DNA of 64,000 bases from an uncultured Thermodesulfobacteriota bacterium (lineage in GTDB: Bacteria; Desulfobacterota; S145-22). The position numbers were made by a program, and so were the translations under genes. The number at the start of each line of letters is the position of its first letter. Positions within the stretch are counted from its first letter, which is position 1. The notes under the pieces were generated by a model. That model searched no databases, was not told the origin of the DNA, and saw only the letters and a list, made by a program, of their open reading frames with translations. Shown one piece after another: positions 19,606-62,380 of the stretch. The DNA is taken from contig CAZOBB010000026.1 in NCBI GenBank assembly GCA_964577975.1, forward strand, positions 3,120 to 67,119, read 5' to 3'.

Positions 19606-21093
19606 ATGTATCAGTACGTTGCCGTAGGATTTTTAGGAGGGGGATTGGTCGTTGCCCTCCTTTTTTATTTTCTCAAGGTAAAGAGGGGGCAAGGGGACGA
19701 GGAAGCGGTTCGCGCCAAAGAAGAACAGCTTTCCGTGGAGATTCAACGGTTACGGGAGGAGATCCGGACGAAGGAACGAAATCTCCTCGAAATTTCGCAA
19801 GAAAAGGCAGCGGCCGTCCAAAAATCGTTGATGATACCGAAACTGGAGGAGCAGATACAGAGGCTGGAGGAAGAGAAGAAAGGATTTTTTCGCCAAATCT
19901 CGGAGCTGCAATCTCAAAAGGCGGAGCTGGAGGCGACGTTGCGGGAAGAGAAAAAGGCGTGGGAAGAGAAATTTCTTCTTTTGGAAGAAGCGAGGCAAAA
20001 ACTTGGCGATGCCTTTGAAGCCCTTTCTGCCAAGGTCCTCCGCCATAGTCAGGAGAGTTTTTTGAGAGAAGCAAAGATAACCCTTGAAAAATTTCACAAT
20101 CAAGCCACGGGGGAGCTGGAGAAACGGAAACAAGCGATAGGGGAATTGGTTCGGCCAATCCAAGAGCTCCTGCATCGGTATGAAAAGGAGATTCAGGAAA
20201 TGGAGCGAGCCCGCCGGGAGGCGTATGGAGGATTGAAGGCACAGGTGGAATCCCTCTTGACGACGCAACGGAAATTGGAGGCTGAAACGAGTAATCTCGT
20301 CCGGGCGTTACGGGCTCCTCAAGTTCGGGGACGGTGGGGTGAAATAACCCTGAAACGGGTCGCAGAACTTGCCGGGATGGTGGAACATTGTGACTTTTAC
20401 GAACAAGAAAGCATGGCCACGGAGGAAGGGCGGCTGCGCCCCGATATGATCGTGAGACTTCCAGGGGGAAAACAGATCGTCGTGGATGCCAAAGTTCCTC
20501 TCATGGCCTATCTGAGGGCCGTCGAGGAAACCGATGAAACGGCGCGTAAAGCGCATTTGAAAGAGCACGCCCGTCAGATCCAGAATCATATTTCGAATTT
20601 GGCGAACAAGGCTTATTGGGATCAGTTTACCCCGACACCCGAGTTCGTTGTCCTTTTCATTCCGGGGGAGAATTTTTTCAGCGCGGCCTTGGAGCAATCT
20701 CCCGATCTCATAGAAGAGGGGGTGCAAAAAGGGGTGATCCTTGCCACCCCAACGACACTTATTTCACTTCTCAAGGCTGTTTCGTATGGATGGCGTCAGG
20801 AAAAGATGGCGGAGAACGCCCAAAGAATCAGCGAGATAGGAAAGATGTTGCACGAAAGAATCCTGATCTTTGCCGGCCATTTGAACGATGTTGGACGCCA
20901 TTTAGACCGAAGCGTCCAATCCTATAACAAGGCCGTGGGGTCTCTCGAAAGTCGCGTGTTGCCGGCCACGCGGCGATTTGAAGAGCTGGGAATATCGTCC
21001 AAAGGCAAGATCGAGCCGATCGGAAAACTGGATAGAAACGCCAGAACGCTCCTTATTGATGAAAAGGAAACCCCGGGTAAAGAAAGGTCATAG
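19606..21093 (+). CDS. rmuC: DNA recombination protein RmuC
   Basis: It has an N-terminal TM helix, a long coiled coil and a C-terminal RmuC nuclease-like domain (RGRWGEITLKRV...VVDAKVPL). Confidence 0.8.
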   Translation: MYQYVAVGFLGGGLVVALLFYFLKVKRGQGDEEAVRAKEEQLSVEIQRLREEIRTKERNLLEISQEKAAAVQKSLMIPKLEEQIQRLEEEKKGFFRQISELQSQKAELEATLREEKKAWEEKFLLLEEARQKLGDAFEALSAKVLRHSQESFLREAKITLEKFHNQATGELEKRKQAIGELVRPIQELLHRYEKEIQEMERARREAYGGLKAQVESLLTTQRKLEAETSNLVRALRAPQVRGRWGEITLKRVAELAGMVEHCDFYEQESMATEEGRLRPDMIVRLPGGKQIVVDAKVPLMAYLRAVEETDETARKAHLKEHARQIQNHISNLANKAYWDQFTPTPEFVVLFIPGENFFSAALEQSPDLIEEGVQKGVILATPTTLISLLKAVSYGWRQEKMAENAQRISEIGKMLHERILIFAGHLNDVGRHLDRSVQSYNKAVGSLESRVLPATRRFEELGISSKGKIEPIGKLDRNARTLLIDEKETPGKERS

Positions 21094-21197
21094 CTTTTTC
21101 CCGGCAGATGAAGAAGGAGATCGACTGGGAAGTTTTTTGCTTCGAGGGGCAAACGCATAGAACTGAATAGACGGGAGGCAGAATTGAGGAATGGGCT

Positions 21198-22505
21198 TTG
21201 AAGAAGGAAAAAGTGGGAGTCAGAAAAGGATTCAGGGTGCCTGACAGGCGAACTATGGGCCTTGTAGGGATGTTTGTGCCGTTGGGCCTTTTTTTTCTCC
21301 TTTCTCAGTTTTACCGAACGTCCTCCGCGGTTATTGCGATTGATTTGATGCGGGATCTCCATCTCAACGCACAGACACTAGGTCTGTTGAGTTCCGTATT
21401 CTTTTATGCCTTTGCCATCGTGCAACTGCCGATGGGAGCGGCGATGGATCTCTTTGGGGCCAAGAGAATTCTCGTCTTTCTCGCCCTTGTGGGGCTGGTA
21501 GGCGCGGTTCTTTTTGCCAGTGCCCAAACCCTCGCCGTGGCTATGACGGGAAGGGCCTTGATTGGGATCGGTATGGCGTGTGGCCTCATGGGAACGTTCA
21601 AGCTTCTCATCAATTGGTTTCCCGAAAACGCCTTTGGAACCGCCTCCGGGCTCATCCTTTCCGTGGGAACCTTGGGGGTTGCCGCCGCAACGGCTCCCTT
21701 GGCGGAGGCCGTGGCGAGGGTAGGGTGGCGTATGACGTTTTTTGGCATGGCCCTATGTCACCTTTTTATTGTCGCGTGGATTATCTTAACGGTGAAGGAG
21801 TCTCCCAAGACACCGATCGAGACCCAAGAGACAGGTTCGCCGGAAGGCGCTGCGAAACGTGATTTTTCCCTGGTTTTCAAGCACCCAAGTTTTTGGTTGA
21901 TTGCCGTTACCACATACGTTCGGTATGGGACCTATGTGGCCATTTCCGCGTTGTGGGCTGGTCCGTTCCTCAGAAAGGTTTACCACTTTTCCTTGATTAA
22001 ATCGGGTAATTTCCTTCTCGCCTTTCCCCTAGGTTTTATACTGGGGGGACCGGTTATCGGGTATCTCTCCGATAAGGTCCTGAAAAATCGGCAGCGTGTG
22101 GTCTTATTCGGCATGATGGGATACAGTCTCATGATGCTTCCCCTTTGCGTGACAGGGACGTCTCTTCCGGATTGGGTCTTGGTGGCTTCTTTTGCGGGTA
22201 TGGGTTTTTTCACCTCCTCAGGTGGGATTATGTATGCCAACATCAAGGAACTCCTCCCGAAAGAGGTCTCGGGACTGGCCATGACGGGCGTCAACTTTTT
22301 TACCATGTTGGGGGCCGCAACTTTTCAGCATGGAATTGGGGCTTTCATCAAGCACCTTTCGGGATCGACCGTCTTGACGCCCAAGGCGTTTCATTGGGGC
22401 TTCCGCATCTGTCTCCTTGCGTCTCTCATAGGGGTTCTTTGCTACTGGTTTGTCAAAGAGGCCGGAAATGGGCTTCACTTGACGGAGGAGGGACGGAAAT
22501 TATGA
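21198..22505 (+). CDS. MFS transporter
   Basis: It has 12 predicted TM helices with a loop 2-3 motif (GAAMDLFGAKR). Its stop overlaps the next gene's start (ATGA). Confidence 0.75.
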   Translation: MKKEKVGVRKGFRVPDRRTMGLVGMFVPLGLFFLLSQFYRTSSAVIAIDLMRDLHLNAQTLGLLSSVFFYAFAIVQLPMGAAMDLFGAKRILVFLALVGLVGAVLFASAQTLAVAMTGRALIGIGMACGLMGTFKLLINWFPENAFGTASGLILSVGTLGVAAATAPLAEAVARVGWRMTFFGMALCHLFIVAWIILTVKESPKTPIETQETGSPEGAAKRDFSLVFKHPSFWLIAVTTYVRYGTYVAISALWAGPFLRKVYHFSLIKSGNFLLAFPLGFILGGPVIGYLSDKVLKNRQRVVLFGMMGYSLMMLPLCVTGTSLPDWVLVASFAGMGFFTSSGGIMYANIKELLPKEVSGLAMTGVNFFTMLGAATFQHGIGAFIKHLSGSTVLTPKAFHWGFRICLLASLIGVLCYWFVKEAGNGLHLTEEGRKL

Positions 22506-24280
22506 ATCCATGGCACGAGGAAAGGTACCTAGCCTACAAAAAACGGATCCAGGTGGCCTCTGGCAAAAAGCCCCCCGACAAGATTTTTGTGGGTGGGGAA
22601 GTTTTGAATGTCTACACGGGAGAGCTTCTGAATTGGGACGTGGCCCTCTCGGGAGATCGTATCGCCTATCTGAAACCGCGGGGGAAACATCTCCAGGGGA
22701 AGGGCACGTTTGTTCACGACGTATCTGGTAAGGTGCTTGTGCCCGGCTATTTTGACCCCCACGCCCACACCGATCTCTATTATACCCCCTGGGAATTTGT
22801 CAAAACGGTGGTGACGACGGGAACCACATCCCTCTTCTCGGATTCTCACGATATGGCGAATGGCTTGGGAATGGAGGGGTTCCTGAAGGTTCTAGAGGCG
22901 TCTCGAACTTTTCCCGTTCGTTTTTTTAGCGGGGTCCCTTTGGCTTCCCCGCCCTATCCGGTGGAAGGGGAAGACCTCTATGGGATTTCGAACGTTCGGC
23001 GTCTGTTGAAGCTAAAGGGGGTGACGGTAAGCGGCAGCGAGTTGACCCCCTGGGTCAAAGTGATTCGTGAGGATGCACCTCTTTTGAAGAAACTCTTTAC
23101 GGTCCACCAAGTGACGGGGAGATTGGAGGGACATACGGTAGGCGCGAAGAAGGAAAAGTTGGCGGCTCTCGTGGCGGCGGGAATAACGTCGTGTCACGAA
23201 TCCATCACTCCCGAAGATGTGGAAGAGAGGCTCCGGTTGGGGCTGTATGTCATGATTCGACAAGGATCCATTCGTAAAGAGTTTGAACGGCTTTTTCCTT
23301 TTCTCCAGCGTTATCACCCTAGAATCATGCTTACCCCAGATGGATTGTTTGCCGATGAGATAGTCGAAAAGGGATATATGAACTATGTGCTGCAAGAGGC
23401 GATTCGTTATGGCGCCGATCCGGTTTCCCTCTATCGGATGGTGAGTCTGAACCCGGCGGTTTATTTTGGTCTCGAGAGCGATCTGGGAGGGATTGCGCCG
23501 GGTCGCCTGGCAGATTTCAATATCCTTCGCGATATAGATGATCCCACACCTTCAGAGGTATGGGTGGGTGGGGAACGGATCGCCGAAGGAGGGATGTGGA
23601 TCGGCAGGGAATGGGGAGAGATCAAAGAGGTGCCCACGGAGCGTCCCCTTGAGATGCCACCGTTGAAGCCGGAGGATTTTCGCGCCTTCTACCCAACATG
23701 GTTTCCGGAGGGAATTCCCGTCATCAAGGTCATCGACCATACCGTGACGGGACTTTGTTGGTGGAAACCCGGCGGAGGCGACGAAGGGAGCGCCGATCCG
23801 GAACGCGATATCTTCAAAGTGGCTTTGATCCACCGAAAAGGACCGGCGTCTGGTATGGGTATTGGCTATGTTTACGGGTTTGGGCTGAACAAGGATACGC
23901 ACATAGCTTCGACCGTCGCCCACGAAACACACAATATGCTCGTGATGGGGACCGATGACCGGGAGATGGCGGCTGCGGCCAACGAGGTTATTAAAATGGG
24001 GGGAGGAATCGTCGTGCGGGGGGAGGGGAAGACCCTCTATCGGTGGCCGTTGTCGGTTGGAGGGATGATGAGTCGTGACTCCATGCGGGACATTGCAGAG
24101 GCGCTTAAGGCAATTCGGTCTCTGTTGCAAGAAAGGGGCACGCCCCTTCCCGATCCCGTTTGGACATTTGGATTTCTTTCGTTTACCTCGATTCTCCGCC
24201 TCCGGATTACGATCTCCGGCGTTTATGACGTGAAAAGGGGAAGTATCCTATATAATGCCAGAAAGGAAGGAAAGGGGTGA
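22502..24280 (+). CDS. ade: adenine deaminase (amidohydrolase superfamily)
   Basis: It has an amidohydrolase metal-binding HxH (FDPHAHTD) and AdeC-like length and domain order. The annotated ORF from 22145 is an out-of-context extension into the MFS gene; the true start is ATG at 22502. Confidence 0.7.
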   Translation: MNPWHEERYLAYKKRIQVASGKKPPDKIFVGGEVLNVYTGELLNWDVALSGDRIAYLKPRGKHLQGKGTFVHDVSGKVLVPGYFDPHAHTDLYYTPWEFVKTVVTTGTTSLFSDSHDMANGLGMEGFLKVLEASRTFPVRFFSGVPLASPPYPVEGEDLYGISNVRRLLKLKGVTVSGSELTPWVKVIREDAPLLKKLFTVHQVTGRLEGHTVGAKKEKLAALVAAGITSCHESITPEDVEERLRLGLYVMIRQGSIRKEFERLFPFLQRYHPRIMLTPDGLFADEIVEKGYMNYVLQEAIRYGADPVSLYRMVSLNPAVYFGLESDLGGIAPGRLADFNILRDIDDPTPSEVWVGGERIAEGGMWIGREWGEIKEVPTERPLEMPPLKPEDFRAFYPTWFPEGIPVIKVIDHTVTGLCWWKPGGGDEGSADPERDIFKVALIHRKGPASGMGIGYVYGFGLNKDTHIASTVAHETHNMLVMGTDDREMAAAANEVIKMGGGIVVRGEGKTLYRWPLSVGGMMSRDSMRDIAEALKAIRSLLQERGTPLPDPVWTFGFLSFTSILRLRITISGVYDVKRGSILYNARKEGKG

Positions 24281-24401
24281 AGGTTGGTGAGGAAGGAATA
24301 GGCAGGTTCTATGGGAGCTCGAAAGGCGAAAAACTTGACATACTTAGAGGGGATTGATAAAAAATAAATGCCGTTTTAACCATGAAAAAAAGGGGCCGAT
24401 T

Positions 24402-25994
24402 ATGGAATCCAAGATCAGGAAAGATTTGGAATCGTTGGGAATTCGGAATGTTAGCCACATCCACTGGAACTTGTCGACACCTGCCTTGTACGAAGAGATC
24501 GTGCGAAGGCGGGAGGGGATGATTGTCCATCTGGGACCTGTCGTGGTACGGACAGGGCATTACACGGGACGGTCTCCAAACGATAAATTCATTGTCAAGG
24601 AACCGACAAGCGAGAACAAGATTTGGTGGGGGGACGTGAACCGTCCTTTTGATGCCAAGAAGTTCGATCTTCTCTTGTATCGCCTGCAGGCATACCTTCA
24701 AGGGAAGGATATCTTCGTCCAGGACTGTTACGCGGGTGCTCATCCCCAGCATCGGGTTCCGATTCGTGTCATAACCGAGACGGCGTGGCATAACCTTTTT
24801 TCGAGGAACATGTTCGTTCAATTGAAGGATCGAAGTCAATTGATGGAGCATGTGCCCGAATTTGTGGTCATCAATGTTCCAAATTTCCGGGCGGTTCCTG
24901 AGTTGGATGGCACCAATTCAGAGGCCTTTGTCCTAGTAAATTTCGGGAGAAAGCTCATCCTCGTGGGAGGAACGAGCTACGCCGGCGAAATCAAAAAGTC
25001 GGTTTTCACAATCTTGAATTTTCTCCTTCCCCAGGAAAAGATCCTTTCCATGCATTGCTCGGCAAACGTGGGGCCCAACGATGATGTGGCCATCTTCTTC
25101 GGCCTTTCCGGAACCGGTAAAACGACGTTGTCGGCCGACCCCGAGCGCCGACTCATAGGGGACGACGAACATGGGTGGGGGGAGGATGGAGTCTTCAATT
25201 TCGAAGGTGGATGTTATGCCAAGGTAATTCGCCTTTCCAAAGAACACGAGCCGGAGATCTACGAGTGCACGAGGAAGTTTGGGACAATCTTGGAGAATGT
25301 GGCTTTCGATATCCACACGCGACGAATCGATTTGAACGACGCCTCATTGACCGAGAACACACGGGCGGCCTATCCCATTCCCCACATTCCTAATGCCATT
25401 CGGGAAGGGGTAGGGGGGCATCCCAAAAATATAATCATGCTTACGGCGGACGCCTTTGGGGTATTGCCTCCTGTGTCCAAATTGACCCCCGAGCAGGCCA
25501 TGTTCCACTTCTTGTCCGGCTATACCGCGAAGGTAGCGGGGACGGAACGGGGGGTCACGGAGCCGGAGGCCACATTCAGCGCGTGTTTCGGAGCTCCATT
25601 CATGGCGTTGCATCCAACGGTTTACGCCCGCCTCCTAGGGGAAAAGATAAAGAAACACGAGGTGAATTGCTGGCTTATCAATACCGGTTGGAGTGGCGGG
25701 CCGTACGGCGTGGGCGAACGGATTCATCTTCCCTACACACGGGCCATGGTCAAGGCGGCCCTCAATGGATCGTTGGCCGATGTGGAGACACGGCACGATC
25801 CGATTTTCAAATTGGATGTGCCGGTTCGGTGTGAGGGAGTGCCCGAGGACATCCTGGATCCCAAGAGGACATGGAAAGATCCCAACGCCTATGATGAGAA
25901 GGCGAAAGAGCTGGCGAGGAGATTCAAAGAGAATTTCAAGAAATTCGAAGATCAAGCGGACGAATCCATTCGCTCGTGTGTACCAGAAGTCTAA
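24402..25994 (+). CDS. pckA: phosphoenolpyruvate carboxykinase (ATP)
   Basis: It has an N-terminal region typical of PEPCK-ATP, a kinase-1a motif (GLSGTGKTT) and is ~530 aa. Confidence 0.9.
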   Translation: MESKIRKDLESLGIRNVSHIHWNLSTPALYEEIVRRREGMIVHLGPVVVRTGHYTGRSPNDKFIVKEPTSENKIWWGDVNRPFDAKKFDLLLYRLQAYLQGKDIFVQDCYAGAHPQHRVPIRVITETAWHNLFSRNMFVQLKDRSQLMEHVPEFVVINVPNFRAVPELDGTNSEAFVLVNFGRKLILVGGTSYAGEIKKSVFTILNFLLPQEKILSMHCSANVGPNDDVAIFFGLSGTGKTTLSADPERRLIGDDEHGWGEDGVFNFEGGCYAKVIRLSKEHEPEIYECTRKFGTILENVAFDIHTRRIDLNDASLTENTRAAYPIPHIPNAIREGVGGHPKNIIMLTADAFGVLPPVSKLTPEQAMFHFLSGYTAKVAGTERGVTEPEATFSACFGAPFMALHPTVYARLLGEKIKKHEVNCWLINTGWSGGPYGVGERIHLPYTRAMVKAALNGSLADVETRHDPIFKLDVPVRCEGVPEDILDPKRTWKDPNAYDEKAKELARRFKENFKKFEDQADESIRSCVPEV

Positions 25995-26047: not shown

Positions 26048-27343
26048 ATGGGGCAATCCTTTTTTCCGCCTTATACATCGATAGAAGAGATTCGTCAGGT
26101 CCAGTTGGAAGGACTCAAATGGACTGTGCGACACGTCTATGAAAACTCGGAGTTTTATCGGAGGCGGTTCGACGAACATGGCGTGAAACCGTCGGACATT
26201 CAATCCTTGGATGATATAACGAAACTCCCCTTTACGGTGACGGACGACTTGAGAGCGGGGTATCCCTTTCCCCTTCGGTCGGTGCCTTTTGATCGAATCG
26301 TTCGAATCCATGCCTCATCCGGCACCACAGGGAAGAGAAAGGTCTTGAGCTATACGAAAAAGGACATCGATGATTGGGCTAACATGTTTGCTCGGTGTTT
26401 TGAGATAGCCGGTTGTACGCGAGAGGATAGGGTCCAAATAGCCGTGGGATACGGGCTATGGACGGCGGGCGCGGGATTTCAAGCGGGGGTGGAGCGTTTT
26501 GGGGCGATGGCGGTTCCCGTCGGGCCGGGGAACATCGATATTCAAATCCAAATGCTCGTGGACTTGAAAACGACCGTGTTGTGTTGCACGGCTTCCATGG
26601 CGTTGCTTCTCGCGGAAGAGATCGAGAAACGAGGAATCAAGAAAGAAATCGCCCTTAAAAAGGTGATATTTGGGGCGGAACGAAGTAGTGACGCCATGCG
26701 TAAACGGATCCGAGACATGTTGGGTGTGGAACATACCTTCGATATCCCGGGCTTGACGGAGCTATACGGGCCGGGGACGGGTCTCGATTGCCCGAAGCAT
26801 GAGGGGATCCATTACTGGGCCGATTATTATATTCTGGAGATCATCGATCCAGAGACCTTGCAGCCTGTTCCGGAAGGGGAAACGGGGGAAATGGTTGTCA
26901 CCACGCTCCGTAAGGAAGCGGCTCCCCTTGTCCGTTACCGCACGAGGGATCTCACGAGACTGATTCCTCATCCGTGTTCGTGCGGAAACGTCTTTCCAAT
27001 GCACGATCGCATCATGGGTAGGAGTGACGATATGTTCATCTTCCGCGCCGTCAATATCTATCCAGGCCAGATTGATCACATCCTTTCCTACACGGAAGGG
27101 GTGGGAAGCGAATACCAGGTGATTCTGGAGAGAAAGGAAGACGGGAAGGATTACATGACGATCCGGGTGGAGAGGGATCCCTCCTGGAGCGCGGAAAGGG
27201 ATGACGAATTGAAAAAAGTCATAATGGAGCGGGTCAAGAAGGAGATTCTGGTCAGCACGGCGGTGGAAATCGTCGATTATGGAACTCTTCCAAGAACAGA
27301 GAGGAAGAGCAAACGCGTGTTCGATAATCGAGAAAACGACTAG
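26048..27343 (+). CDS. phenylacetate-CoA ligase family adenylate-forming enzyme (PaaK / coenzyme F390 synthetase-like)
   Basis: It has a PaaK-type N-terminus (IEEIRQVQLEGLKWTVRHVYENSEFYRRRFDEHGVKPSDI...), an AMP-binding motif (SSGTTGKRK) and is ~430 aa. Confidence 0.8.
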   Translation: MGQSFFPPYTSIEEIRQVQLEGLKWTVRHVYENSEFYRRRFDEHGVKPSDIQSLDDITKLPFTVTDDLRAGYPFPLRSVPFDRIVRIHASSGTTGKRKVLSYTKKDIDDWANMFARCFEIAGCTREDRVQIAVGYGLWTAGAGFQAGVERFGAMAVPVGPGNIDIQIQMLVDLKTTVLCCTASMALLLAEEIEKRGIKKEIALKKVIFGAERSSDAMRKRIRDMLGVEHTFDIPGLTELYGPGTGLDCPKHEGIHYWADYYILEIIDPETLQPVPEGETGEMVVTTLRKEAAPLVRYRTRDLTRLIPHPCSCGNVFPMHDRIMGRSDDMFIFRAVNIYPGQIDHILSYTEGVGSEYQVILERKEDGKDYMTIRVERDPSWSAERDDELKKVIMERVKKEILVSTAVEIVDYGTLPRTERKSKRVFDNREND

Positions 27344-27359
27344 GAGAAAGGGAGCTGGT

Positions 27360-28226
27360 ATGATCGAGTATGAGTATCTGAAACCGAAAAATCTTGAGGA
27401 AGTCTTTTCCTATTTGAAATCTTTTGGAGAAAAGGCGACTTTGATTGCGGGAGGAACGGATGTGATGGTGAACATCCGAAACAAAAAGATTGCTCCCGAG
27501 GCGCTGATTTCCCTGCGAAACCTGGAGGAGCTGGCCTACATAAAAAAGGGCGAGGACGCCTATCACATCGGGGCCTTGACCACGCATCGGATGCTGGAAA
27601 CCAGCTCATTGGTGGCACGAGAGCTTTCGGCGTTGCATGACGGCGCGTCGCAAGTAGGGTCTGTCCAGATAAGAAACGTGGCGACCATCGGAGGCAATAT
27701 CTGTAATGCCGCTCCCTCTGCGGATACGGCGGGGCCGCTTCTGGCGTTGGATGCCGCTGTGGTTTTGAAAGGACCCAACGGTTCCAGAAAGGTTCCGTTA
27801 ACAGAGTTTTTTACAGGTCCATCCCAGACCGTGCGGGCTCACGACGAAGTGGCGGTGGAGTTTGAGATTCCCCTGCGCATGGGGGAATTCGGAAGTGCCT
27901 ATCACAAACACGCGCGCAGAAAGGCCATGGATCTACCTATCTTGGGAGTGGCTGTTTCTCTCGAGATGGAGGGAGAGACTGTTAAGGACGCCCGGATTGC
28001 GTTAAGCGTGGCGGCTCCTACCCCAATTCGCGCCGTGAAAGCGGAGGAATTCCTGAGAGGAAAAAAGGGAGAGGAGGAGGTCTTTGAGGAGGCTGGAAAG
28101 ATAGCGGCAGAGGAGGCATCTCCCCGCGATAGCTTGAGGGGTAAGGCGTGGTACCGGAAAGAGATCATTGCGACCTTTGTGCCAAAGATGGCGTTTAGAG
28201 CCATGGAACGTCTTAAAAATCGTTAA
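27360..28226 (+). CDS. xanthine dehydrogenase family FAD-binding subunit (CoxM/PaoB-like)
   Basis: It has an FAD-binding domain of molybdopterin dehydrogenases (TLIAGGTDVMV...IGGNICNAAPSAD). The start is at the internal ATG 27360 with a GGAG SD. It has only one Cys, so there is no HcrB-type Fe-S insertion. Confidence 0.8.
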   Translation: MIEYEYLKPKNLEEVFSYLKSFGEKATLIAGGTDVMVNIRNKKIAPEALISLRNLEELAYIKKGEDAYHIGALTTHRMLETSSLVARELSALHDGASQVGSVQIRNVATIGGNICNAAPSADTAGPLLALDAAVVLKGPNGSRKVPLTEFFTGPSQTVRAHDEVAVEFEIPLRMGEFGSAYHKHARRKAMDLPILGVAVSLEMEGETVKDARIALSVAAPTPIRAVKAEEFLRGKKGEEEVFEEAGKIAAEEASPRDSLRGKAWYRKEIIATFVPKMAFRAMERLKNR

Positions 28227-28240
28227 TCAAGGAGTGAGGG

Positions 28241-28723
28241 ATGAAGAAGATTACGGTCTCGTTTACACTGAATGGAGATCCTGTCACGGCGGAAGTTCCG
28301 GCGACCTGGAATTTATTGAAAACATTGCGGGAATACTTTGAATTGATGGGCCCGAAGGAAGGGTGTGGCGTGGGTGAATGTGGTGCCTGCACCGTCATCA
28401 TTGATGGAAAAGCGGTCAATTCTTGTATCTTTCCGACGGCGGAAGTGGAAGGAAAAAACGTGGTAACGGTGGAAGGACTTGCCAGCAAGGATGGGACCTT
28501 GCATCCTCTTCAAAAGGCCTTTTTGGAAAACAATGGGGTTCAATGTGGATTTTGCACGTCGGGAATGCTGATGTCGGCGAAGGCCTTGTTGGACGAGAAT
28601 CCTGATCCAACGGAAGAGGATATAAGGACGAGCCTTTCGGGAAATCTTTGTCGGTGCACGGGATACGTACAGATCGTGGAATCTGTTCAGAAAGCCGCAG
28701 AAATGATGAAAAATCAATCCTAA
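28241..28723 (+). CDS. xanthine dehydrogenase family 2x[2Fe-2S] small subunit (CoxS/PaoA-like), cytoplasmic
   Basis: It has a plant-type ferredoxin motif (CGVGECGACTV) and a second cluster motif (GFCTSGM...CRCTGY), with no Tat signal. Confidence 0.85.
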   Translation: MKKITVSFTLNGDPVTAEVPATWNLLKTLREYFELMGPKEGCGVGECGACTVIIDGKAVNSCIFPTAEVEGKNVVTVEGLASKDGTLHPLQKAFLENNGVQCGFCTSGMLMSAKALLDENPDPTEEDIRTSLSGNLCRCTGYVQIVESVQKAAEMMKNQS

Positions 28724-28742
28724 GGACGTCGGGAGGAAGGGA

Positions 28743-31136
28743 ATGAGCGAATACCTATTTGTGGGAAAGGATATCCCCCGGACAGCGGAGGTAGATAAAG
28801 TAACGGGGCGAGCCGTTTATATCAACGATTTGAAGCGTCCCGGTATGTTGTACGGAAAGATAAAATACAGCGAGTATGCCCATGCCAGGATTAGGCATAT
28901 CGATACGTCGAAGGCAAAGCGGCTTCCGGGTGTGAAAGCCGTGATCACGGGATACGACATTCCCGATGTGCGGGTAGGTTTTCTGAAAGATCAAACGGTT
29001 CTCAAGAAAGACAAAGTGCGCCAATTTCGGGATGAAGTAGCGGCCGTGGCGGCTATCAGCCCTGAAATCGCCGAGGAGGCGTGCGATCTCATCAAGGTGG
29101 AATATGAGGAACTTCCCGGCGTTTTTGACCCCTTCGAGGCCATGAAGGAAGACGCTCCCTTGATCCACGAGGTGGACGCGAGGGGCCGTCCCATACGAAC
29201 GAACGTGCTTCCATTGCCGTGGAAGTTTGAGGCTGGAGATATCGAAGCAGGCCGGGCCAAGTCGGCCTATGTCGTCGAAGACAAGGTTCAAACCACATGG
29301 GTAAATCAATGTTGTATGGGCACGAGTGGTTGTATCGCGGAATTTGACATGAACAATAACCTGACCCTCTACAATCAGACGAATGTCATCTTCTGGGACA
29401 AGCGCCGCATTCTTGAGTATTTTGCCCAGATAGGATTGAAGAACAGCAAGGTTCGTGTGGTGAATCCCATCGTGGGAGGGAGCTTTGGAACAAAACTCGA
29501 TACCGACATCTATGAGTTTATCTGTATCCAGCTGGCTTTGATCACCCGGAAACCGGTCAAAATCATCTTCACGCGAGAAGAAGAATTCTTTGCCTTGCCT
29601 CCCCGGCAACCTGCCGTTTTCGAGATCGAACAAGGCTGCGACAAAGAGGGACGGCTCACCTTTCGTCGGGCCACGGCGGTGTTGGATAACGGTGCCTACA
29701 CCTCGTGGGGAGCCACGACCCCTTCCGTGATGATGATGCCGATTTCTTCCCTGTACCGGGTTCCCAATGTCTATTTTGAAGCCAAGTGCGTATATACGAA
29801 TAACATCTACTGTCAGGCGATGCGGGGATATGGGAATCCGCAGGCAACGTTTGCGGTGGAGACTTCCATGGATCGTCTGGCGGAAGAAGCGGGCATCGAT
29901 CCTGCCGAATTTAGGCTCATCAACACCAACAAACCGGGAGACGAGACGCCGATGAGGTTGAAGATAACCTCGTGCGGGCTGGAAGAATGCATTCGTGGCG
30001 TCAAAGAGAAGCTGGGATGGGATAAGAAACGGGGAAAGCGGAATGGGCGAGGAGTGGGAATGGCCTCGTTGATCCATGTGGCGGGGGGTGCCCGGGTTTA
30101 CAAGTCGGATGGTCATGGAATGATTATCAAGGTGGATGAACATGGGCATGTGGACGTGATGTCGGGAGGCACGGATCAGGGGCAGGGATCCCCCACGGCA
30201 TTGGCGCAGATCATCGCGGAGGCGCTCGGGTTCAGACCTGACGATATCAATCTAGTGTTCGGAGACACGGCGTTTGGATTGTGGGATGCGGGAACGCATG
30301 CGAGCCGTCATACCTTTATCGCTGGGAACGCGGCATTGAAGGCGTGTGCGAAGGTCAAACGCCAAATTCTGGAGCTTGCCGTTGAGAAAATGCCGAAGAT
30401 CATTCAACAGCAGATCAAAAGAAAGAAGAGGAAAGATCCCGATTTCAAAGAGCCCGACCTCGATTTTGACCTTATCTCAGATCCCAAGAACCTGGATATC
30501 AAAAATCGAACCGTCTTCTGCGTGAAGGATCCAGAGAATCCCTATTTCCGTATGGACGTGAGTCGCATCCTCCGTGAAGCGTTGGACGTGGGGACCGGAG
30601 AAAGCAAGGTCGTCGTGGCAGAGGCGTTTTACGATCCTCCCACCGAAATGCTGGATAGGGAATTCAAGGGGAACCTTTCTTGCACGTATGCCTTTGGAAC
30701 AACGGGTGTGGAAGTGGAAGTGGACGAAAAGACGGGGGAAGTGAAGATCCTTCAGCTTTACGCCGCCCACGATGTGGGAAAGGCCATCAACCCAACCCTT
30801 ATCAAAGGACAGATATACGGAGCAGGGTATATGGGCGTGGGGTATGGTCTGACGGAGGAAATGAAGCTGGAAAAGGGGAGGGTAATGAACCCCAACTTCC
30901 TGGATTACAAAATGCTTACCGCGAAAGACGCCATCCCCGTTTATCCGATGATTGTTGAAACGGATGAGAAGGATGGACCTTTTGGGGCGAAGGGAATAGG
31001 AGAGCCAGGATTGGTTCCGACGGCACCCGCCATCGCCAATGCGGTTTACGACGCGGTGGGGGTGCGGATCACGGACCTTCCCATAACCCCGGAGAAGGTG
31101 TTGAAAGCGCTCAAGGAGAAAAGACAAGGAAAGTAA
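28743..31136 (+). CDS. xanthine dehydrogenase family molybdopterin-binding large subunit (aldehyde oxidoreductase / purine hydroxylase-like)
   Basis: The 797-aa protein has an a/b hammerhead plus MoCo-binding domains, including the GSFGTKLD and YRVPNVYFEAKCVYTNN motifs. Confidence 0.85.
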   Translation: MSEYLFVGKDIPRTAEVDKVTGRAVYINDLKRPGMLYGKIKYSEYAHARIRHIDTSKAKRLPGVKAVITGYDIPDVRVGFLKDQTVLKKDKVRQFRDEVAAVAAISPEIAEEACDLIKVEYEELPGVFDPFEAMKEDAPLIHEVDARGRPIRTNVLPLPWKFEAGDIEAGRAKSAYVVEDKVQTTWVNQCCMGTSGCIAEFDMNNNLTLYNQTNVIFWDKRRILEYFAQIGLKNSKVRVVNPIVGGSFGTKLDTDIYEFICIQLALITRKPVKIIFTREEEFFALPPRQPAVFEIEQGCDKEGRLTFRRATAVLDNGAYTSWGATTPSVMMMPISSLYRVPNVYFEAKCVYTNNIYCQAMRGYGNPQATFAVETSMDRLAEEAGIDPAEFRLINTNKPGDETPMRLKITSCGLEECIRGVKEKLGWDKKRGKRNGRGVGMASLIHVAGGARVYKSDGHGMIIKVDEHGHVDVMSGGTDQGQGSPTALAQIIAEALGFRPDDINLVFGDTAFGLWDAGTHASRHTFIAGNAALKACAKVKRQILELAVEKMPKIIQQQIKRKKRKDPDFKEPDLDFDLISDPKNLDIKNRTVFCVKDPENPYFRMDVSRILREALDVGTGESKVVVAEAFYDPPTEMLDREFKGNLSCTYAFGTTGVEVEVDEKTGEVKILQLYAAHDVGKAINPTLIKGQIYGAGYMGVGYGLTEEMKLEKGRVMNPNFLDYKMLTAKDAIPVYPMIVETDEKDGPFGAKGIGEPGLVPTAPAIANAVYDAVGVRITDLPITPEKVLKALKEKRQGK

Positions 31137-31140
31137 AGGG

Positions 31141-31695
31141 ATGAAGAATTTTTTAGGCTGGAAGAGGTGGTTGCCCCTGGTTATCGGGGTAACGGGATTG
31201 ATCATGGGTATAACCATGAGTGGAGGGCATACCATGACTTTCACTCTTGTCAGTGCCACGTTACGGGAAGGGGGAATGATCCCATCCGTCTACACATGTG
31301 ACGGGAAAGATCTCTCCCCTCCACTTTCTTGGTCTGGAGCACCGGAAGGCACGAAGAGCTTTGCCCTGATTTGTGACGATCCGGATGCTCCTGGAGGGAC
31401 ATGGGTCCATTGGGTCGTTTTTAACGTTCCATCCAATGTCGCGTCTTTGCCGGAAGGGGTTCCGACCATTCGTGAGCTGCCTGACGGAACGCGTCAAGGG
31501 ATCAATGACTTTCATAGAATAGGTTATGGGGGGCCCTGTCCCCCGAAAGGCCCTCCCCACCGATATTTCTTCAGGCTCTACGCCTTGGATACGACTCTTC
31601 CCCTCTCGCCTGGGGCAACGAAGCGGCAGCTCATCTCCGCGATGAAGGGGCATGTCCTCGGTGAAACGACACTCATAGGGAAGTACGGAAGGTAA
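31141..31695 (+). CDS. YbhB/YbcL family PEBP (Raf kinase inhibitor-like) protein with N-terminal signal/TM segment
   Basis: It has a PEBP core (CDDPDAPGGTWVHWVVFN...GPCPPKGPPHRYFFRLYALD). Confidence 0.75.
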   Translation: MKNFLGWKRWLPLVIGVTGLIMGITMSGGHTMTFTLVSATLREGGMIPSVYTCDGKDLSPPLSWSGAPEGTKSFALICDDPDAPGGTWVHWVVFNVPSNVASLPEGVPTIRELPDGTRQGINDFHRIGYGGPCPPKGPPHRYFFRLYALDTTLPLSPGATKRQLISAMKGHVLGETTLIGKYGR

Positions 31696-31704
31696 GATAC
31701 TACC

Positions 31705-32538
31705 TCACCGGCAGAGATTCTGGACGAATGCTGGAAGCTGAAAGGATGCGGTGTGAAGGGAGGGGGTGTAGTAACGAAAGGACGTCGTGGAGGGGACGCG
31801 GGAGCTGTCGAAATCGTTGATAGGATCGATTCCCTTGGAGGCGTAGGCAAACGTCCATAACCCTCCGGGATAGGTGGGAGTATAGGAAAGATAGAGTTTG
31901 ACGAGGGGGAAGACGTTTCGTAAATTTTGGTGTATTTTCGTAACCCAATCGGGATAAAAGAAGGGGGACTCCGCCTGGACGGCGATGATTCCATCTTCCC
32001 GCAATGCTTGGAAGGCGTCGTGATAGAAGGTGGAAGTAATGAGACCCTCAGCGGGGCCGACGGGATCGGTTGAATCAACCAAAATGACGTCGTAGGCGTC
32101 CTTTTTTGTTTTGATAAATTCGATGCCATCGGTAGGAAGGATGGTAAGGAGTGGATTGTCCAACTCGCAGGAGACCTCCGGAAAATATCTTCTTGCCACC
32201 TCGATGACAACTTCGTCGATTTCCACGAGATCCAAATGACCTACCTCGGGGTGTTTGAAGACCTCACGGGCCGTTCCCCCGTCGCCCCCTCCTATGATCA
32301 ATACATCCCGGGGATTCGGGTGGGAATAGAGAGGGACATGGGCAAGCATCTCGTGATAGACAAATTCATCTTTTTGGGTGATTTGGACGCACCCGTCCAA
32401 GACCAGGACGTTTCCGTAGAATTCCGTTTCAAACACATCGATGCGTTGAAAGGGGGTTTTTTGAGAGAAAAGAACCTTTTCCACCTTGAAAGTCAAACCA
32501 CTTTTCGATGCGTCGATTTCTTTAAACCATAGATCCAT
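31705..32538 (-). CDS. speE: polyamine aminopropyltransferase (spermidine synthase)
   Basis: It has the SpeE signature (VLVLDG...IIGGGDGGTAREVFKHP...EIDEVVIE). Confidence 0.85.
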   Translation of the reverse strand: MDLWFKEIDASKSGLTFKVEKVLFSQKTPFQRIDVFETEFYGNVLVLDGCVQITQKDEFVYHEMLAHVPLYSHPNPRDVLIIGGGDGGTAREVFKHPEVGHLDLVEIDEVVIEVARRYFPEVSCELDNPLLTILPTDGIEFIKTKKDAYDVILVDSTDPVGPAEGLITSTFYHDAFQALREDGIIAVQAESPFFYPDWVTKIHQNLRNVFPLVKLYLSYTPTYPGGLWTFAYASKGIDPINDFDSSRVPSTTSFRYYTPSLHTASFQLPAFVQNLCR

Positions 32539-32541
32539 TTA

Positions 32542-33015
32542 TTACTCCCACAAGACGACTCCGGCGAAGACGGCACCGGAGCCTTTGGAAACGTAGTCGA
32601 TAGCTTGGCTCATCACATCTTTGAGAGGGAAGTTTCGGACTCGAAAGGCCTCTTCCGCCATTCCCCGAACGATACTTTCTATCTCTTCTTTGTGTCCGCG
32701 GGAGGAATATTCCATGATGACACCCGGAAGGGAAGGGTCTTCCGGAATGGCGACGGCAACTCCCGCGGCGATTCTTTCACCGGGTATATCGCTGAAAATG
32801 GTGCCATAGGCAACCGGGATGAGTTTACCCGGCTGTATCGTCGGTGCGTGCTCCAAGTACGTGCAACGAGGGGGAAGGATGCTGCTTATCTTGATGAGGT
32901 TGGTGTTGCCGATACCCGAAGCGAGGAGGGCGCCGTCGAAGGCGTTCAAGGGAGTCGCGCCTTCTGCGTGTCCCGTGGCAAAGAAAAAATGGTGGTAAAC
33001 GGAGTGGAATATCAT
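32542..33015 (-). CDS. pdaD: pyruvoyl-dependent arginine decarboxylase
   Basis: It belongs to the PdaD family at ~157 aa, with the Ser-Ser self-cleavage region (FFFATGHAEGATPLNAFD). Confidence 0.8.
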   Translation of the reverse strand: MIFHSVYHHFFFATGHAEGATPLNAFDGALLASGIGNTNLIKISSILPPRCTYLEHAPTIQPGKLIPVAYGTIFSDIPGERIAAGVAVAIPEDPSLPGVIMEYSSRGHKEEIESIVRGMAEEAFRVRNFPLKDVMSQAIDYVSKGSGAVFAGVVLWE

Positions 33016-33016
33016 A

Positions 33017-33445
33017 TTATGTTTGAGAACCGGTTATGGGAACGATTTTAGGATTGGCGACCGAGGCGACACGGTGACACTGATTTTCTGAAGGGCTTTC
33101 CACGCTTCCCCTCAGCAGCTCCAGTTTCGTATCTGTTTCGGGTTGAAAATGGTCTTTCAAAAAATGATAGGCCTTCCATGGGTCAACCGTGGTGCCACAC
33201 GTGTAGATGTCGATGGAGGCGTAATTAAATTCAGGCCACGTGTGGATCGCCAAGTGTGATTCCGCGATTATGACTACTCCGCTGATGCCGTAAGGATTAA
33301 ATCGATGAAAACGACTGTCGATGATGGTTGCCCCACTGTAAAGGGCGGCTTCTTCCATGAGGGATTTGATGGTTTCGAGGTCATCAAGGATCTTTGCTTT
33401 GCACCCATAGAACTCAGTCAAAACGTGGCGTCCTAAAGCTTTCAA
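33017..33445 (-). CDS. speH: S-adenosylmethionine decarboxylase proenzyme, small archaeal/bacterial class 1 (pyruvoyl)
   Basis: It has the SpeH signature (GISGVVIIAESHLAIHTWPEFNYASIDIYTCG) and a TTG start. Confidence 0.8.
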   Translation of the reverse strand: MKALGRHVLTEFYGCKAKILDDLETIKSLMEEAALYSGATIIDSRFHRFNPYGISGVVIIAESHLAIHTWPEFNYASIDIYTCGTTVDPWKAYHFLKDHFQPETDTKLELLRGSVESPSENQCHRVASVANPKIVPITGSQT

Positions 33446-33599: not shown

Positions 33600-34979
33600 A
33601 TGGGGGTAGAAATGGAACTTGAAAAAGAGGGAATAGGTTTGTTGGAGGAAGCGGTCAAACGTTTGGAAGAAGGTTTCGGACGTTTACCTTCCTTTTCCGT
33701 CGAGAGGGATTGGGAGGCGATGAAAAAGGTTCTCATGGAGACTGCCGAAAGGTTGTGGGACAACTATCCCTATTTTCATCCTTTGTACGCGGGTCAGATG
33801 CTGAAACCTGGCCATCCCGTGGCCAATATGGCGTATATGATGGCAATGTGGATCAATCCCAATAATCACGCATTGGATGGAGGACGTGCGAGCTCACAAA
33901 TGGAGAAGGAATCGGTGGCGGAAATCGCCCGGATGTTTGGATGGAAAACACATTTGGGACACCTTTGTGGGGGAGGAACCATGGCAAACATGGAGGCCTT
34001 GTGGGTGGCTGGATCGCTCCATCCAGATAGGATGATTGTTGCCTCCGAACAGGCCCATTACACGCATCAACGCATCTCCCAGGTGTTGAAGCTTCCCTTC
34101 CGATCCGTTCCAACCGATGCAACGGCGAAAATGGATGTGAATGCGTTGGAAGACGTCTTGAAAAAAGAGGATGTGGGGACGGTGGTCGTGACGCTCGGGA
34201 CGACCGCGACGGGATCGGTGGATCCCTTGGATGACGTTCTGGAACTGAAGAAAAGATACGACTTTCGCATTCATGCAGACACGGCCTATGGAGGATATTT
34301 CACCCTTGTCAGTAACTTGGAAGAGAAGGCCACACGGGCCTACCGAGCTTTGGAATATGTCGATTCTGTGGCCATCGATCCTCACAAGCACGGGTTGCAG
34401 CCGTATGGCTGTGGGTGCATTCTGTTTAGGGATCCGGCGGTTGGTAAGCTATATAAACATGATTCTCCTTATACCTATTTCAGCTCCCAAGAACTTCATC
34501 TGGGGGAGATCAGCCTGGAGTGCTCCCGAGCGGGTGCGTCCGCGGTAGCTTTGTGGACGACAATGCGGCTTTTTCCTTTGACGAAAGGAGGAAGATTTGC
34601 CCGGATGCTGGAGGATTGCCGCCGGGCCGCCCAGGAACTTTATGCGCGATTGGAAAGCGATTCCCGATTTGTTACGGCGTTTCCACCAGAATTGGATATT
34701 GTTATCTGGGCGCCTCGAGGGAATCGTGTTTCCAAAATCTCACAGGCCTCGTCCGTTTTGTTTGAAAAGGCGGCGGAAAGGGATCTTCACCTCGCCCTTG
34801 CGACGCTCCCTGTGAAGTTTTTTGAGAAAAACCTGGTGGATGTTCAAATCGACGCCGAGACCATAACCTGCCTTCGTTCCTGTTTGATGAAACCGGAGCA
34901 TCTTCAGTGGGTGGACCGTATCCATGGAATCCTAAGAGAGGTCGCGGATGAAACTGCTAACGAGAATGAGGAGTCGTAG
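33600..34979 (+). CDS. group II PLP-dependent amino acid decarboxylase (fold type I)
   Basis: It has a PLP-lysine motif (DPHKHGLQPYGCG) and an upstream GGGTMANMEAL segment. Its substrate is unknown. Confidence 0.75.
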   Translation: MGVEMELEKEGIGLLEEAVKRLEEGFGRLPSFSVERDWEAMKKVLMETAERLWDNYPYFHPLYAGQMLKPGHPVANMAYMMAMWINPNNHALDGGRASSQMEKESVAEIARMFGWKTHLGHLCGGGTMANMEALWVAGSLHPDRMIVASEQAHYTHQRISQVLKLPFRSVPTDATAKMDVNALEDVLKKEDVGTVVVTLGTTATGSVDPLDDVLELKKRYDFRIHADTAYGGYFTLVSNLEEKATRAYRALEYVDSVAIDPHKHGLQPYGCGCILFRDPAVGKLYKHDSPYTYFSSQELHLGEISLECSRAGASAVALWTTMRLFPLTKGGRFARMLEDCRRAAQELYARLESDSRFVTAFPPELDIVIWAPRGNRVSKISQASSVLFEKAAERDLHLALATLPVKFFEKNLVDVQIDAETITCLRSCLMKPEHLQWVDRIHGILREVADETANENEES

Positions 34980-47490: not shown

Positions 47491-47612
47491 CTCCTTTGTA
47501 ATCTTTTTCTCGTCATGACCAAGTCTTTTTATCTCAAAAATACCAAAAAATGGCAAGGTTGCTTTTGGGGACAGGTCTTGCATTTTTCGTGGAAGGGATT
47601 ATTATTATGCCC

Positions 47613-48515
47613 ATGGCGAGGCAGCGTCGGTTTGAGTACCCGGGAGGGATTTATTATATTAGAGCTCGGGGTGTGGAAAATGAAATCTTTAAAGATGAAA
47701 GTGATCGGAAGAGATTTCTAGATATTCTTTCAGAGACGGTGTATCGATTCAAATGGTTGTGCCACTCATATTGCTTGTTAAACGACCACTATCACCTGAT
47801 TTTGGAAACCCCTTACGGCAATCTTTCCAAGGGCATGAGGCAGATAAACGGCCTTTACACACAGAGCTTCAATAGAAAATATAGGCGGCGTGGAGCTTTG
47901 TTCAAAGGGAGATTCAAATCGGTCGTCTTCGAAAAAAAGGGGTACCTATTGCCGTTAAACCGCCATCTCGTCCTGAATCCTGTTAGGAGTGGATTGGTAG
48001 GATCGCCGGATAGATGGCGGTGGAGCAGCTATTTGCCCACGGTGGAAGAGGAAGAAGCGCCCCCGTTTCTTTTTACGGGATTTATTCTGTCCCTTTTTTC
48101 TAAAGAGAACAGGGCATTGGCGATAGAAAAGTACAAACGATTTATTTTCAGTGGTGAGGCGGAAAAATTCTCATGGCGCGACCTAAAATTCCAAATTTTC
48201 CTTGGGAGCGATTTTTTTATAGAGAAGATACGCCAGATGTTTATGGTGCATAAAGTTCCCAAACGTGATAGAAGGTCCCTATCGGAAAATGGCGTGCGGG
48301 AAGTTTTGGACCCCCTGTTGGGAAGGGGTTGGACATCAAGAAAGGATAGAGATGCGCTTATTTACGAGGCCTATATTCACCATGGACTGACCCTGGGTGA
48401 AATTGCAGCTTACCTTGGTGTACATACGGCAACAGTGAGCCGAGCTGTTAAACGAGTTGAAAGGAGAAATTCGTGGGTGAAGAAACGAATGGGAGGACAA
48501 GTATGGGTAAAATAA
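47613..48515 (+). CDS. Y1 HUH (IS200/REP-associated tyrosine transposase-like) protein fused to a C-terminal HTH domain
   Basis: Its N-terminus matches the Y1 transposase pattern ([20 protein letters not shown]...), and it has an HuH motif (DHYHLIL) and a C-terminal HTH ([21 protein letters not shown]). There is no tnpB partner and no recognisable terminal hairpins. Confidence 0.6.
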
Positions 48516-52414: not shown

Positions 52415-52450
52415 GACAGAATGCCCAAATCACGTTGATTGAGGAAAGTG

Positions 52451-53623: not shown

Positions 53624-53651
53624 AGACGACGCAAGAACGGGAGTAAAAAGG

Positions 53652-55613: not shown

Positions 55614-55661
55614 GCCCAGGAAAGCGGAAATACGTGTATTAATCAACCTTGGAGATTGTGA

Positions 55662-58133: not shown

Positions 58134-58148
58134 AAAGGGAAGGGTGCC

Positions 58149-59123: not shown

Positions 59124-59136
59124 GAGGGACGATACG

Positions 59137-59550
59137 ATGATTATTCCGCTGATAAAGGGTTTGAAATATACATTGGGGAGATTCTTTTCCAAGCCGATTA
59201 CCATCCAGTACCCCGAGGAACGACGGGAGGTTGCGCCAAGGTGGCGAGGAATCCATTATTTCAACGTGGATGAAAATGGGACGTTCAAGTGCGTGGCGTG
59301 TGGGTTGTGCGCGGCGGTTTGTCCCTCACAGTGTATCAAGATAACGGCGGGGGAAGACGAAGAAGGCGTGCGTTATCCCATGCATTATGAAATCAATGCG
59401 ATCCGGTGCATCTATTGCGGTTTCTGCGTAGAGGCCTGCCCGGTAGATGCGATCAGGATGGGGTCGAAATATGATTTCACCGATTACAAACGCGAAGACT
59501 TCATATTAACCATTGATCGCTTGGTCTCTCAGGATTACTTGGAGAAATAG
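59137..59550 (+). CDS. nuoI: NADH-quinone oxidoreductase subunit I (2x[4Fe-4S])
   Basis: It has two CxxCxxCxxxCP motifs (CVACGLCAAVCP; CIYCGFCVEACP). Confidence 0.9.
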   Translation: MIIPLIKGLKYTLGRFFSKPITIQYPEERREVAPRWRGIHYFNVDENGTFKCVACGLCAAVCPSQCIKITAGEDEEGVRYPMHYEINAIRCIYCGFCVEACPVDAIRMGSKYDFTDYKREDFILTIDRLVSQDYLEK

Positions 59551-59561
59551 GAGTAGAAGGC

Positions 59562-60388: not shown

Positions 60389-60404
60389 AGAAGGAGAACG
60401 ATCC

Positions 60405-62354: not shown

Positions 62355-62380
62355 TAGGAAGAGAACGAAGGAGAATCTAA

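Follow-up and report, generated by a model that had tools for sequence, protein, structure and literature searches.

The present analysis deals with four genes on a stretch of 64,000 nucleotides from an uncultured Thermodesulfobacteriota bacterium (GenBank assembly GCA_964577975.1, contig CAZOBB010000026.1, positions 3,120 to 67,119 of the forward strand), the whole of which is referred to as the window. The genes follow one another on the plus strand and encode a coenzyme A (CoA) ligase of the PaaK family and a three-subunit molybdoenzyme of the xanthine dehydrogenase (XDH) family. They are orthologous to the ligase and the molybdoenzyme of operons of the iaa type, and on balance the module is considered to provide the enzymes for the two opening steps of anaerobic indoleacetate (auxin) degradation, namely indoleacetate-CoA ligase and indoleacetyl-CoA 2-hydroxylase.

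The first gene (26048-27343) encodes a PaaK-family aryl-acetate-CoA ligase of 431 amino acids with the Pfam domains AMP-binding and AMP-binding_C_2, the orthologue of the iaa-operon ligase (IaaB-like). It is followed by the genes of a CoxM/CutM-like medium subunit binding flavin adenine dinucleotide (FAD) (27360-28226; 288 amino acids; FAD_binding_5 and CO_deh_flav_C), of a small iron-sulfur (FeS) subunit with two [2Fe-2S] clusters (28241-28723; 160 amino acids; Fer2 and Fer2_2), and of an HcrA-like, molybdopterin-binding large subunit, termed the molybdenum (Mo) subunit (28743-31136; 797 amino acids; Ald_Xan_dh_C, MoCoBD_1 and MoCoBD_2). Every expected domain of the four proteins exceeds its Pfam gathering cut-off, and none of the four proteins reaches the cut-off of an NCBIfam equivalog model. 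The start of the FAD gene is ATG 27360, which is preceded by GGGAG and agrees with the public gene call, and not the in-frame ATG 27279 of the list of open reading frames (ORFs). The genes are separated by gaps of 16 nt (27344-27359), 14 nt (28227-28240), and 19 nt (28724-28742), each of which contains a GGAG-type Shine-Dalgarno sequence, and the order ligase-FAD-FeS-Mo is repeated in 47 loci from many species outside the clade to which the window belongs, a recurrence far beyond chance. A scan of the window for consensus promoters and terminators gave counts equal to the shuffled-sequence expectation and was uninformative, so that the operon assignment is based on spacing and conserved gene order; on these grounds, the four genes form a real operon. 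Searches of the window with Rfam and ARAGORN revealed no molybdenum cofactor (Moco) riboswitch, other RNA family, or tRNA.

Among proteins of solved structure, the Mo subunit is matched best and over its full length by HcrA (1rm6_A; 384 bits), followed by CoxL (254 bits), PaoC (202 bits), MOP (194-202 bits), bovine XDH (156-159 bits), and the XDH of R. capsulatus (130 bits). HcrA is also the best NCBIfam model (TIGR03194; 565 bits, cut-off 994.55), ahead of XdhA (516 bits, cut-off 780) and PaoC (297 bits, cut-off 1180). Active-site residues were mapped by alignment to a fragment of bovine XDH. The catalytic Glu (bovine E1261) is kept as E754 in the sequence GIGEPG, and the Moco-contacting Arg of the A-x-R-G-x-G motif (bovine R912) as R361 in AMRGYG, while the purine-binding residues Glu802 and Arg880 of XDH are replaced by Leu252 and Val329. 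As judged from these residues, the active site is of the hydroxylase type and not built for purines. A further feature is found at residues 552-609, where the subunit contains about 34 residues more than HcrA and has a very basic stretch (QQIKRKKRKDPDF). The extra segment is conserved across the family at 71-92% identity and in a relative at 52% identity (800 amino acids), and is apparently absent from a relative at 58% identity, as judged by the length of the latter (775 amino acids) and its match in two segments.

The FAD subunit finds its best matches in the PDB in 4zoh_B and CutM; it scores 270 bits against the XdhB model (cut-off 310), and the FeS subunit 189 bits against XdhC (cut-off 217). 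Since residues 112-269 of the FAD subunit align only to residues 152-308 of HcrB, with an offset of 40 residues, and since the 288 amino acids include a single Cys, the Cys-rich [4Fe-4S] insert of about 40 residues is absent. The FeS subunit begins straight at the ferredoxin fold and is devoid of a twin-arginine translocation (Tat) leader, because its match to the PaoA profile does not start before profile position 51. These results bear out much of a preliminary description of this DNA, in which one operon, a cytoplasmic three-subunit enzyme of the XDH family distinct from bona fide XDH, and the lack of both the HcrB-type Cys insert and a Tat signal had been proposed. Gene coordinates, gaps, Shine-Dalgarno sequences, and conserved order agree with the first of these claims; the Pfam domains, the sub-cut-off scores against the Xdh models, and the state of the Glu/Arg pair, which had been named there as diagnostic of purine substrates, agree with the second.

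The ligase aligns end to end with solved PaaK structures (352-379 bits) at 43-45% identity, whereas its identity to the ligases of iaa-type clusters amounts to 66-73%. The PaaK equivalog models TIGR02155 and NF041878 give 429 and 430 bits, respectively, and their cut-offs of 646 and 700 are not reached. The residues V133, W138, and F144, invariant in 47 out of 47 ligases of the family, occupy the positions of Y136, F141, and A147 of PaaK1, which we take, after Law & Boulanger 2011, to be residues of the aryl pocket.

Related gene clusters and the predicted steps of indoleacetate degradation

Relatives of the Mo subunit number in the thousands in the protein database, the best 120 being 75-91% identical and mostly from metagenome-assembled genomes of Desulfobacterota. 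A scan of species-representative genomes yielded 80 loci with Mo subunits of 71-92% identity, distributed over Desulfatiglandales, Desulfobacteraceae, Syntrophorhabdus, Syntrophus, and Ca. Desulfacyla. Their gene content was recorded in a tblastn presence matrix with query proteins from the well-annotated loci L002 and L003, and the following counts of loci exclude the window's own clade. The ligase gene is located directly upstream of FAD-FeS-Mo in 40 of the 48 loci that have at least 3.2 kb of upstream sequence. As partner genes of the iaa type, hydantoinase-like A/B, the small and large subunits of a B12-dependent mutase, the TRAP components DctPQM, a GntR regulator, and an acyl-CoA dehydrogenase were counted. 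At least one of them accompanies the module in 44 of the 47 ligase-bearing loci, the three exceptions being short contigs, and among the 29 loci with 8 kb or more of upstream and 4 kb or more of downstream sequence, 25 have partner genes. Several of the loci additionally contain a fused enoyl-CoA hydratase/3-hydroxyacyl-CoA dehydrogenase and a thiolase. Clusters of the same kind surround Mo subunits of 58% and 52% identity, and the cluster association of the family was thus traced to about 52% identity; for a relative at 49% identity (P0123), neither a ligase nor iaa genes were found on its short contigs. In the plasmid collection no iaa cluster was found, the closest match there being 38% identical.

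The identity of these clusters can be read from their acyl-CoA dehydrogenases. In 16 out of 16 checked, the motif GGG, in the context LLYGGGTHE (one with S for Y), takes the place of the YEG found in other members of the family. Replacement of the YEG active-site motif by GGG is shared throughout the IaaF subclass, and iaa operons have been predicted in Desulfatiglans anilini, other sulfate reducers, and Ferroglobus placidus (PMC8360864). The related clusters are iaa operons, because their dehydrogenases carry this diagnostic motif. In the iaa operon of Aromatoleum aromaticum, IaaB is the indoleacetate-CoA ligase catalyzing the first step, IaaGH the B12 mutase, IaaL a CoA transferase, and IaaF a decarboxylating benzylmalonyl-CoA dehydrogenase (PMC8360864). 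The next predicted intermediate after indoleacetyl-CoA is 2-oxoindoleacetyl-CoA (PMC8360864, PMC5214803).

From this context the following sequence of reactions is proposed, in which the substrate is deduced from gene-cluster association and literature, and the order of reactions and the electron acceptor are likewise inferred. The PaaK-family ligase would adenylate indole-3-acetate at the expense of ATP and transfer the acyl moiety to CoA, yielding indoleacetyl-CoA. As IaaB forms indoleacetyl-CoA first, hydroxylation at C2 of the CoA ester would be left to the Mo enzyme, and the fact that HcrA is the closest solved homologue fits an aryl-CoA substrate. Water-dependent C2 hydroxylation of a pyrrole is molybdenum hydroxylase chemistry. 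The Mo centre would hydroxylate C2 of the pyrrole ring of the thioester to give 2-oxoindoleacetyl-CoA, with the oxygen derived from water and E754 acting as the base; electrons would pass from Mo via the two [2Fe-2S] clusters and FAD to an external acceptor. Normally, the product would then be ring-opened by the hydantoinase-like lactamase. In 2012, Ebenau-Jehle et al. reportedly detected 2-oxoindoleacetate and attributed its formation to a molybdenum-cofactor dehydrogenase of the xanthine-oxidase family, genes of which are said to be in the cluster.

Many of the related loci contain, in addition, genes for the maturation of a selenium-dependent enzyme. A class-V aminotransferase gene for an EF2568-type desulfurase was found in 31 loci (TIGR01977, 434-436 bits, cut-off 377), where it adjoins the Mo gene or lies elsewhere in the cluster (e.g., L003:15643-16923, L064:12433-13653); the protein is also a strong sub-threshold match to the selenocysteine lyase SclA. 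Three loci (L064, L084, and L085; L064:5963-8300 and 19813-21487, L084:15287-17709) encode YqeB and YqeC, with scores exceeding the cut-offs, together with a MocA-like nucleotidyltransferase, and SelD and YedF occur in L064 only. Such maturation genes were reportedly described by Haft & Self in 2008 as markers of selenium-dependent molybdenum hydroxylases. From this association, a labile Se (or S) ligand may be expected in the predicted indoleacetyl-CoA hydroxylase, with gene neighbourhood as the one indication of selenium dependence. YqeB, YqeC, the EF2568-type desulfurase, and SelD were not found in the window.

In one subclade, a family III CoA-transferase replaces the ligase directly upstream of FAD-FeS-Mo (L018:1953-7352, L025:2700-7773); a LysR regulator gene follows downstream, and the other iaa genes are absent. 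This context, likewise decoupled from the pathway, points to a CoA ester as the substrate of the Mo enzyme. The iaa clusters of the Syntrophorhabdus type, on their part, contain a second XDH-family enzyme with the gene order Mo-FAD-FeS (L057:16639-20305; also L059, L060, L063, L065, L069, and L074), the Mo subunit of which is 32% identical to that of the window. Its FAD subunit carries a Cys-rich HcrB-type insert (CLEYNQSLEWRTARGFCFKMGGKECNVVKGAKSCFSNYC), and because of this insert the enzyme is assigned to the reductase type; it may act on a later aryl-CoA intermediate.

The module of the window clade and competing explanations

In a neighbor-joining tree of Mo subunits, rooted on paralogues of 32-38% identity, the window clade (the window, i.e., L001, together with L004-L010) is nested within the iaa-cluster family as sister to a group of Desulfatiglandales and Desulfobacteraceae. 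Among 71 full-length sequences 288 columns are invariant, and L41K is the sole difference of the window clade at sites with 95% or higher conservation among 64 relatives; hence there is no sign of change in the active site of the clade's Mo subunit.

The surroundings of the module include two genes that had been missing from the preliminary description. Upstream, the gene of an ATP-dependent phosphoenolpyruvate carboxykinase (PEPCK; 24354-25994, plus strand; Pfam PEPCK_ATP, NF006820 at 872 bits) ends 53 nt before the ligase start. Downstream, 4 nt past the Mo stop codon and in the same orientation, begins the gene of a PEBP/YbhB-YbcL family protein (31141-31695, plus strand; Pfam PBP, TIGR00481), which probably shares the transcript of the module; a part of its product in the chemistry is not inferred. 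The hydrophobic N-terminal extension of this protein is open also in L089:12396-12944, where the public gene call begins later. The block PEPCK-ligase-FAD-FeS-Mo-PEBP is kept in L007, L008, L009, L089 (91% identity), and L090 (84% identity), with differing outer flanks. The PEBP gene follows the module in L006-L010, L089, and L090; the iaa clusters of other clades lack it. In L008, another copy is located upstream of PEPCK. PEPCK is a part of the conserved block in this clade, without an implied functional link to the module. For the ligase and Mo genes, comparison of the window with L007-L009 gave a non-synonymous divergence (dN) of 0.06-0.09, equal to that of PEPCK. The synonymous divergence (dS) was saturated and most dN/dS ratios were not computable, so that dN alone was used; as judged by it, the module is under strong purifying selection and not decaying.

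Several observations weigh against the assignment to the indoleacetate pathway. Hydantoinase, mutase, TRAP, IaaF-type dehydrogenase, IaaL, and GntR genes were found neither in the 64-kb window (tblastn, Pfam) nor, for the same partner genes, on the contigs of five close relatives. With no iaa partners nearby, it is not obvious what would become of the hydroxylated product, except if the genes are unlinked; the rest of the pathway genes, if the organism has them, would lie elsewhere in the genome. At sites with 95% or higher conservation among 43 iaa-cluster ligases, those of the window clade show 12 fixed differences, and in the ligase tree the clade, monophyletic with the iaa-cluster ligases, is placed as their sister and not nested among them. 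Furthermore, the reference for orthology is the iaa-type clusters of Desulfobacterota and not a characterised IaaB or iaa Mo enzyme, and an XDH-family enzyme in the iaa locus of Aromatoleum/Azoarcus is presumed after Ebenau-Jehle et al. 2012. To our knowledge, the Mo enzyme of the indoleacetate pathway has never been purified and its role in C2 hydroxylation is still only predicted, and in the full-text collection searched, no paper describing or characterising the iaa molybdenum enzyme was found.

The same observations lend some weight to the explanation that the chemistry is unchanged and the module has been recruited to another substrate or purpose, such as a different (hetero)arylacetate or the inactivation of auxin-like acids without ring opening. 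In its favour are the lack of iaa partner genes on the six contigs of the clade, the conservation of the PEPCK-module-PEBP block amid differing outer flanks, and the branching of the ligases outside those of the iaa clusters. The 12 fixed ligase substitutions point in the same direction, as several of them (V137L, C148V, S210A, and M236L) are located in pocket-lining segments and as two control clades have three and zero fixed differences. However, all but one of these changes are conservative, and the signature V133/W138/F144 is unaltered; the divergence could reflect a modest shift in specificity or also faster evolution in combination with a small, closely related clade. The Mo subunit, which would be expected to set the substrate of hydroxylation, has a single fixed change and is nested in the iaa family, and pathway genes may be encoded unlinked elsewhere in the genome. 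Recruitment of this kind is accordingly regarded as unlikely, albeit as an alternative to be taken seriously. In a bolder and similarly doubtful version, the pair would have been freed from the auxin pathway and fixed in the block of PEPCK, ligase, Mo enzyme, and PEBP, where it would work on its own in two steps, turning indoleacetate or a related arylacetate into an oxindole-type CoA ester that serves some end other than full breakdown. This end could be the inactivation of a signal or the entry into a different downstream route, and the Mo enzyme could, from the neighbourhoods of its relatives, also be a selenium-dependent hydroxylase.

An MFS transporter gene and a gene for an amidohydrolase of the adenine-deaminase family (21198-24280), with an apparent overlap of 4 nt according to the ORF coordinates (end of the MFS ORF at 22505), are located upstream of PEPCK in the window and in L008; L090 has the amidohydrolase gene alone, and L089 and L009 have neither. 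At 337 bits versus a cut-off of 472, the amidohydrolase is not a bona fide Ade. That a metal-dependent amidohydrolase replaces the missing lactam-opening step is pure speculation.

According to the preliminary description, the module might lead from an aromatic aldehyde to the acid and then, by action of the ligase, to the CoA ester. The XDH family does include aldehyde oxidoreductases, an adjoining acid-CoA ligase would fit, and there are sub-threshold NCBIfam matches to the models of glyceraldehyde dehydrogenase and PaoC. This route is nevertheless improbable and was abandoned, given the 194-202 bits of PaoC and Desulfovibrio MOP versus 384 bits of HcrA, the score of 297 against a PaoC cut-off of 1180, and the related loci, which contain no aldehyde-producing genes but iaa operons in which the ligase acts first.

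It is even less credible that a bona fide purine xanthine dehydrogenase is tied to the adenine-deaminase-like gene two genes upstream, with coincidental adjacency of the ligase. Such a link might be read from the best matches of the FAD and FeS subunits to XdhB and XdhC, the 516 bits of the Mo subunit with XdhA, and the occurrence of the deaminase-family gene in the window, L008, and L090, accompanied in the first two by the MFS transporter. Against it stand the scores below all three Xdh cut-offs (516/780, 270/310, and 189/217), the replacement of Glu802/Arg880 by Leu252/Val329, and the adjacency of the ligase in 47 loci; the deaminase-like gene itself remains below its cut-off (337/472), has PEPCK lying between itself and the module, and does not occur in L089 or L009. 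A 4-hydroxybenzoyl-CoA reductase-type enzyme for the reductive dehydroxylation of an aryl-CoA is just as hard to sustain: the Mo subunit is matched best by HcrA both among solved structures and among the models, but the model score is far under the cut-off, the Cys-rich insert that would feed low-potential electrons is absent, and a genuine insert-bearing paralogue (32% identical Mo subunit) exists as a separate enzyme in the iaa clusters of Syntrophorhabdus. A periplasmic enzyme of the PaoABC type was rejected in view of the absent Tat leader, the match to PaoA only from position 51, and the PaoC score of 297/1180.

Thus, from the earlier suggestion of a system hydroxylating or dehydroxylating aryl-CoA, the hydroxylating half is upheld by the match to HcrA and the iaa context, and the dehydroxylating half falls with the absent [4Fe-4S] insert. 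The substrate, formerly left unassigned, can be narrowed by orthology to indoleacetate and indoleacetyl-CoA, with the caveat that the downstream genes are not nearby in this lineage.

Other features of the window

Directly downstream of the PEBP gene, a polyamine cluster on the minus strand (31705-33445) encodes spermidine synthase, a pyruvoyl-dependent arginine decarboxylase, and S-adenosylmethionine decarboxylase; it is followed on the plus strand by a group II pyridoxal phosphate-dependent decarboxylase gene (33600-34979). An ORF of 321 amino acids (47550-48515) has a weak match to IS200-like Y1 transposases (32 bits) and may represent a tyrosine transposase that is associated with repetitive extragenic palindromes or domesticated. 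A complex I (nuo-like) cluster is present at 52439-63964, in which the gene of the 49-kDa subunit is followed by that of a protein (53652-55613) combining a NuoF-type FeS domain with a GltD/pyridine-nucleotide-disulfide-oxidoreductase module and, next, by that of a NuoG-like protein of 823 amino acids with molybdopterin-oxidoreductase domains.

Comparison with known systems

The ligase has the same fold and length as the solved PaaK proteins (PaaK1 of Burkholderia cenocepacia, PDB 2Y27/2Y4N; Bacteroides thetaiotaomicron, 4R1L). It differs from them by its identity of 43-45%, by scores below the equivalog cut-offs, and by V, W, and F in the positions of Y136, F141, and A147 of PaaK1. HcrABC of Thauera aromatica (PDB 1RM6/1SB3) is likewise a three-subunit cytoplasmic enzyme of the XDH family with an aryl-CoA substrate. 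The Mo subunits are identical at roughly one third of their positions, an estimate made by eye from the alignment and not computed. The enzyme of the window is set apart from HcrABC by an FAD subunit without the [4Fe-4S] insert, by some 34 additional residues at positions 552-609 of its Mo subunit, and by the predicted direction of the reaction, which would be hydroxylation. With the selenium-dependent molybdenum hydroxylases, for which nicotinate dehydrogenase of Eubacterium barkeri (PDB 3HRD) and the genes EF2563-EF2570 of Enterococcus faecalis may serve as examples, the related loci have maturation genes in common, while the window contains none.

The closest parallel is offered by the iaa loci themselves. 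In Aromatoleum aromaticum EbN1 and A. evansii KB740, a PaaK-family ligase gene is reportedly situated directly upstream of the genes for a predicted XDH-family FAD/FeS/Mo enzyme, as in the window. With the proteins encoded in the iaa-type clusters of Desulfobacterota, the ligase of the window shares 66-73% identity and the Mo subunit 71-80%. In contrast to the iaa loci, the window clade has no other iaa genes nearby, and PEPCK and PEBP genes flank the module.

The Mo family, which combines an HcrA-like Mo subunit with a CoxM-like flavoprotein, is tight, abundant, and widespread in Desulfobacterota, and the present assignment replaces the annotations "xanthine dehydrogenase family protein" and "phenylacetate-CoA ligase" by a specific and testable one. 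For heterologous expression, a compact set of one ligase and three subunits with nothing else nearby would be a handy target. It also raises the question of which role the pair plays where genes for the ring-opening and mutase steps are not found next to it. Summarizing, the enzyme pair is of a known, though biochemically uncharacterised, kind, and it is the stand-alone context that distinguishes the window from the iaa loci.

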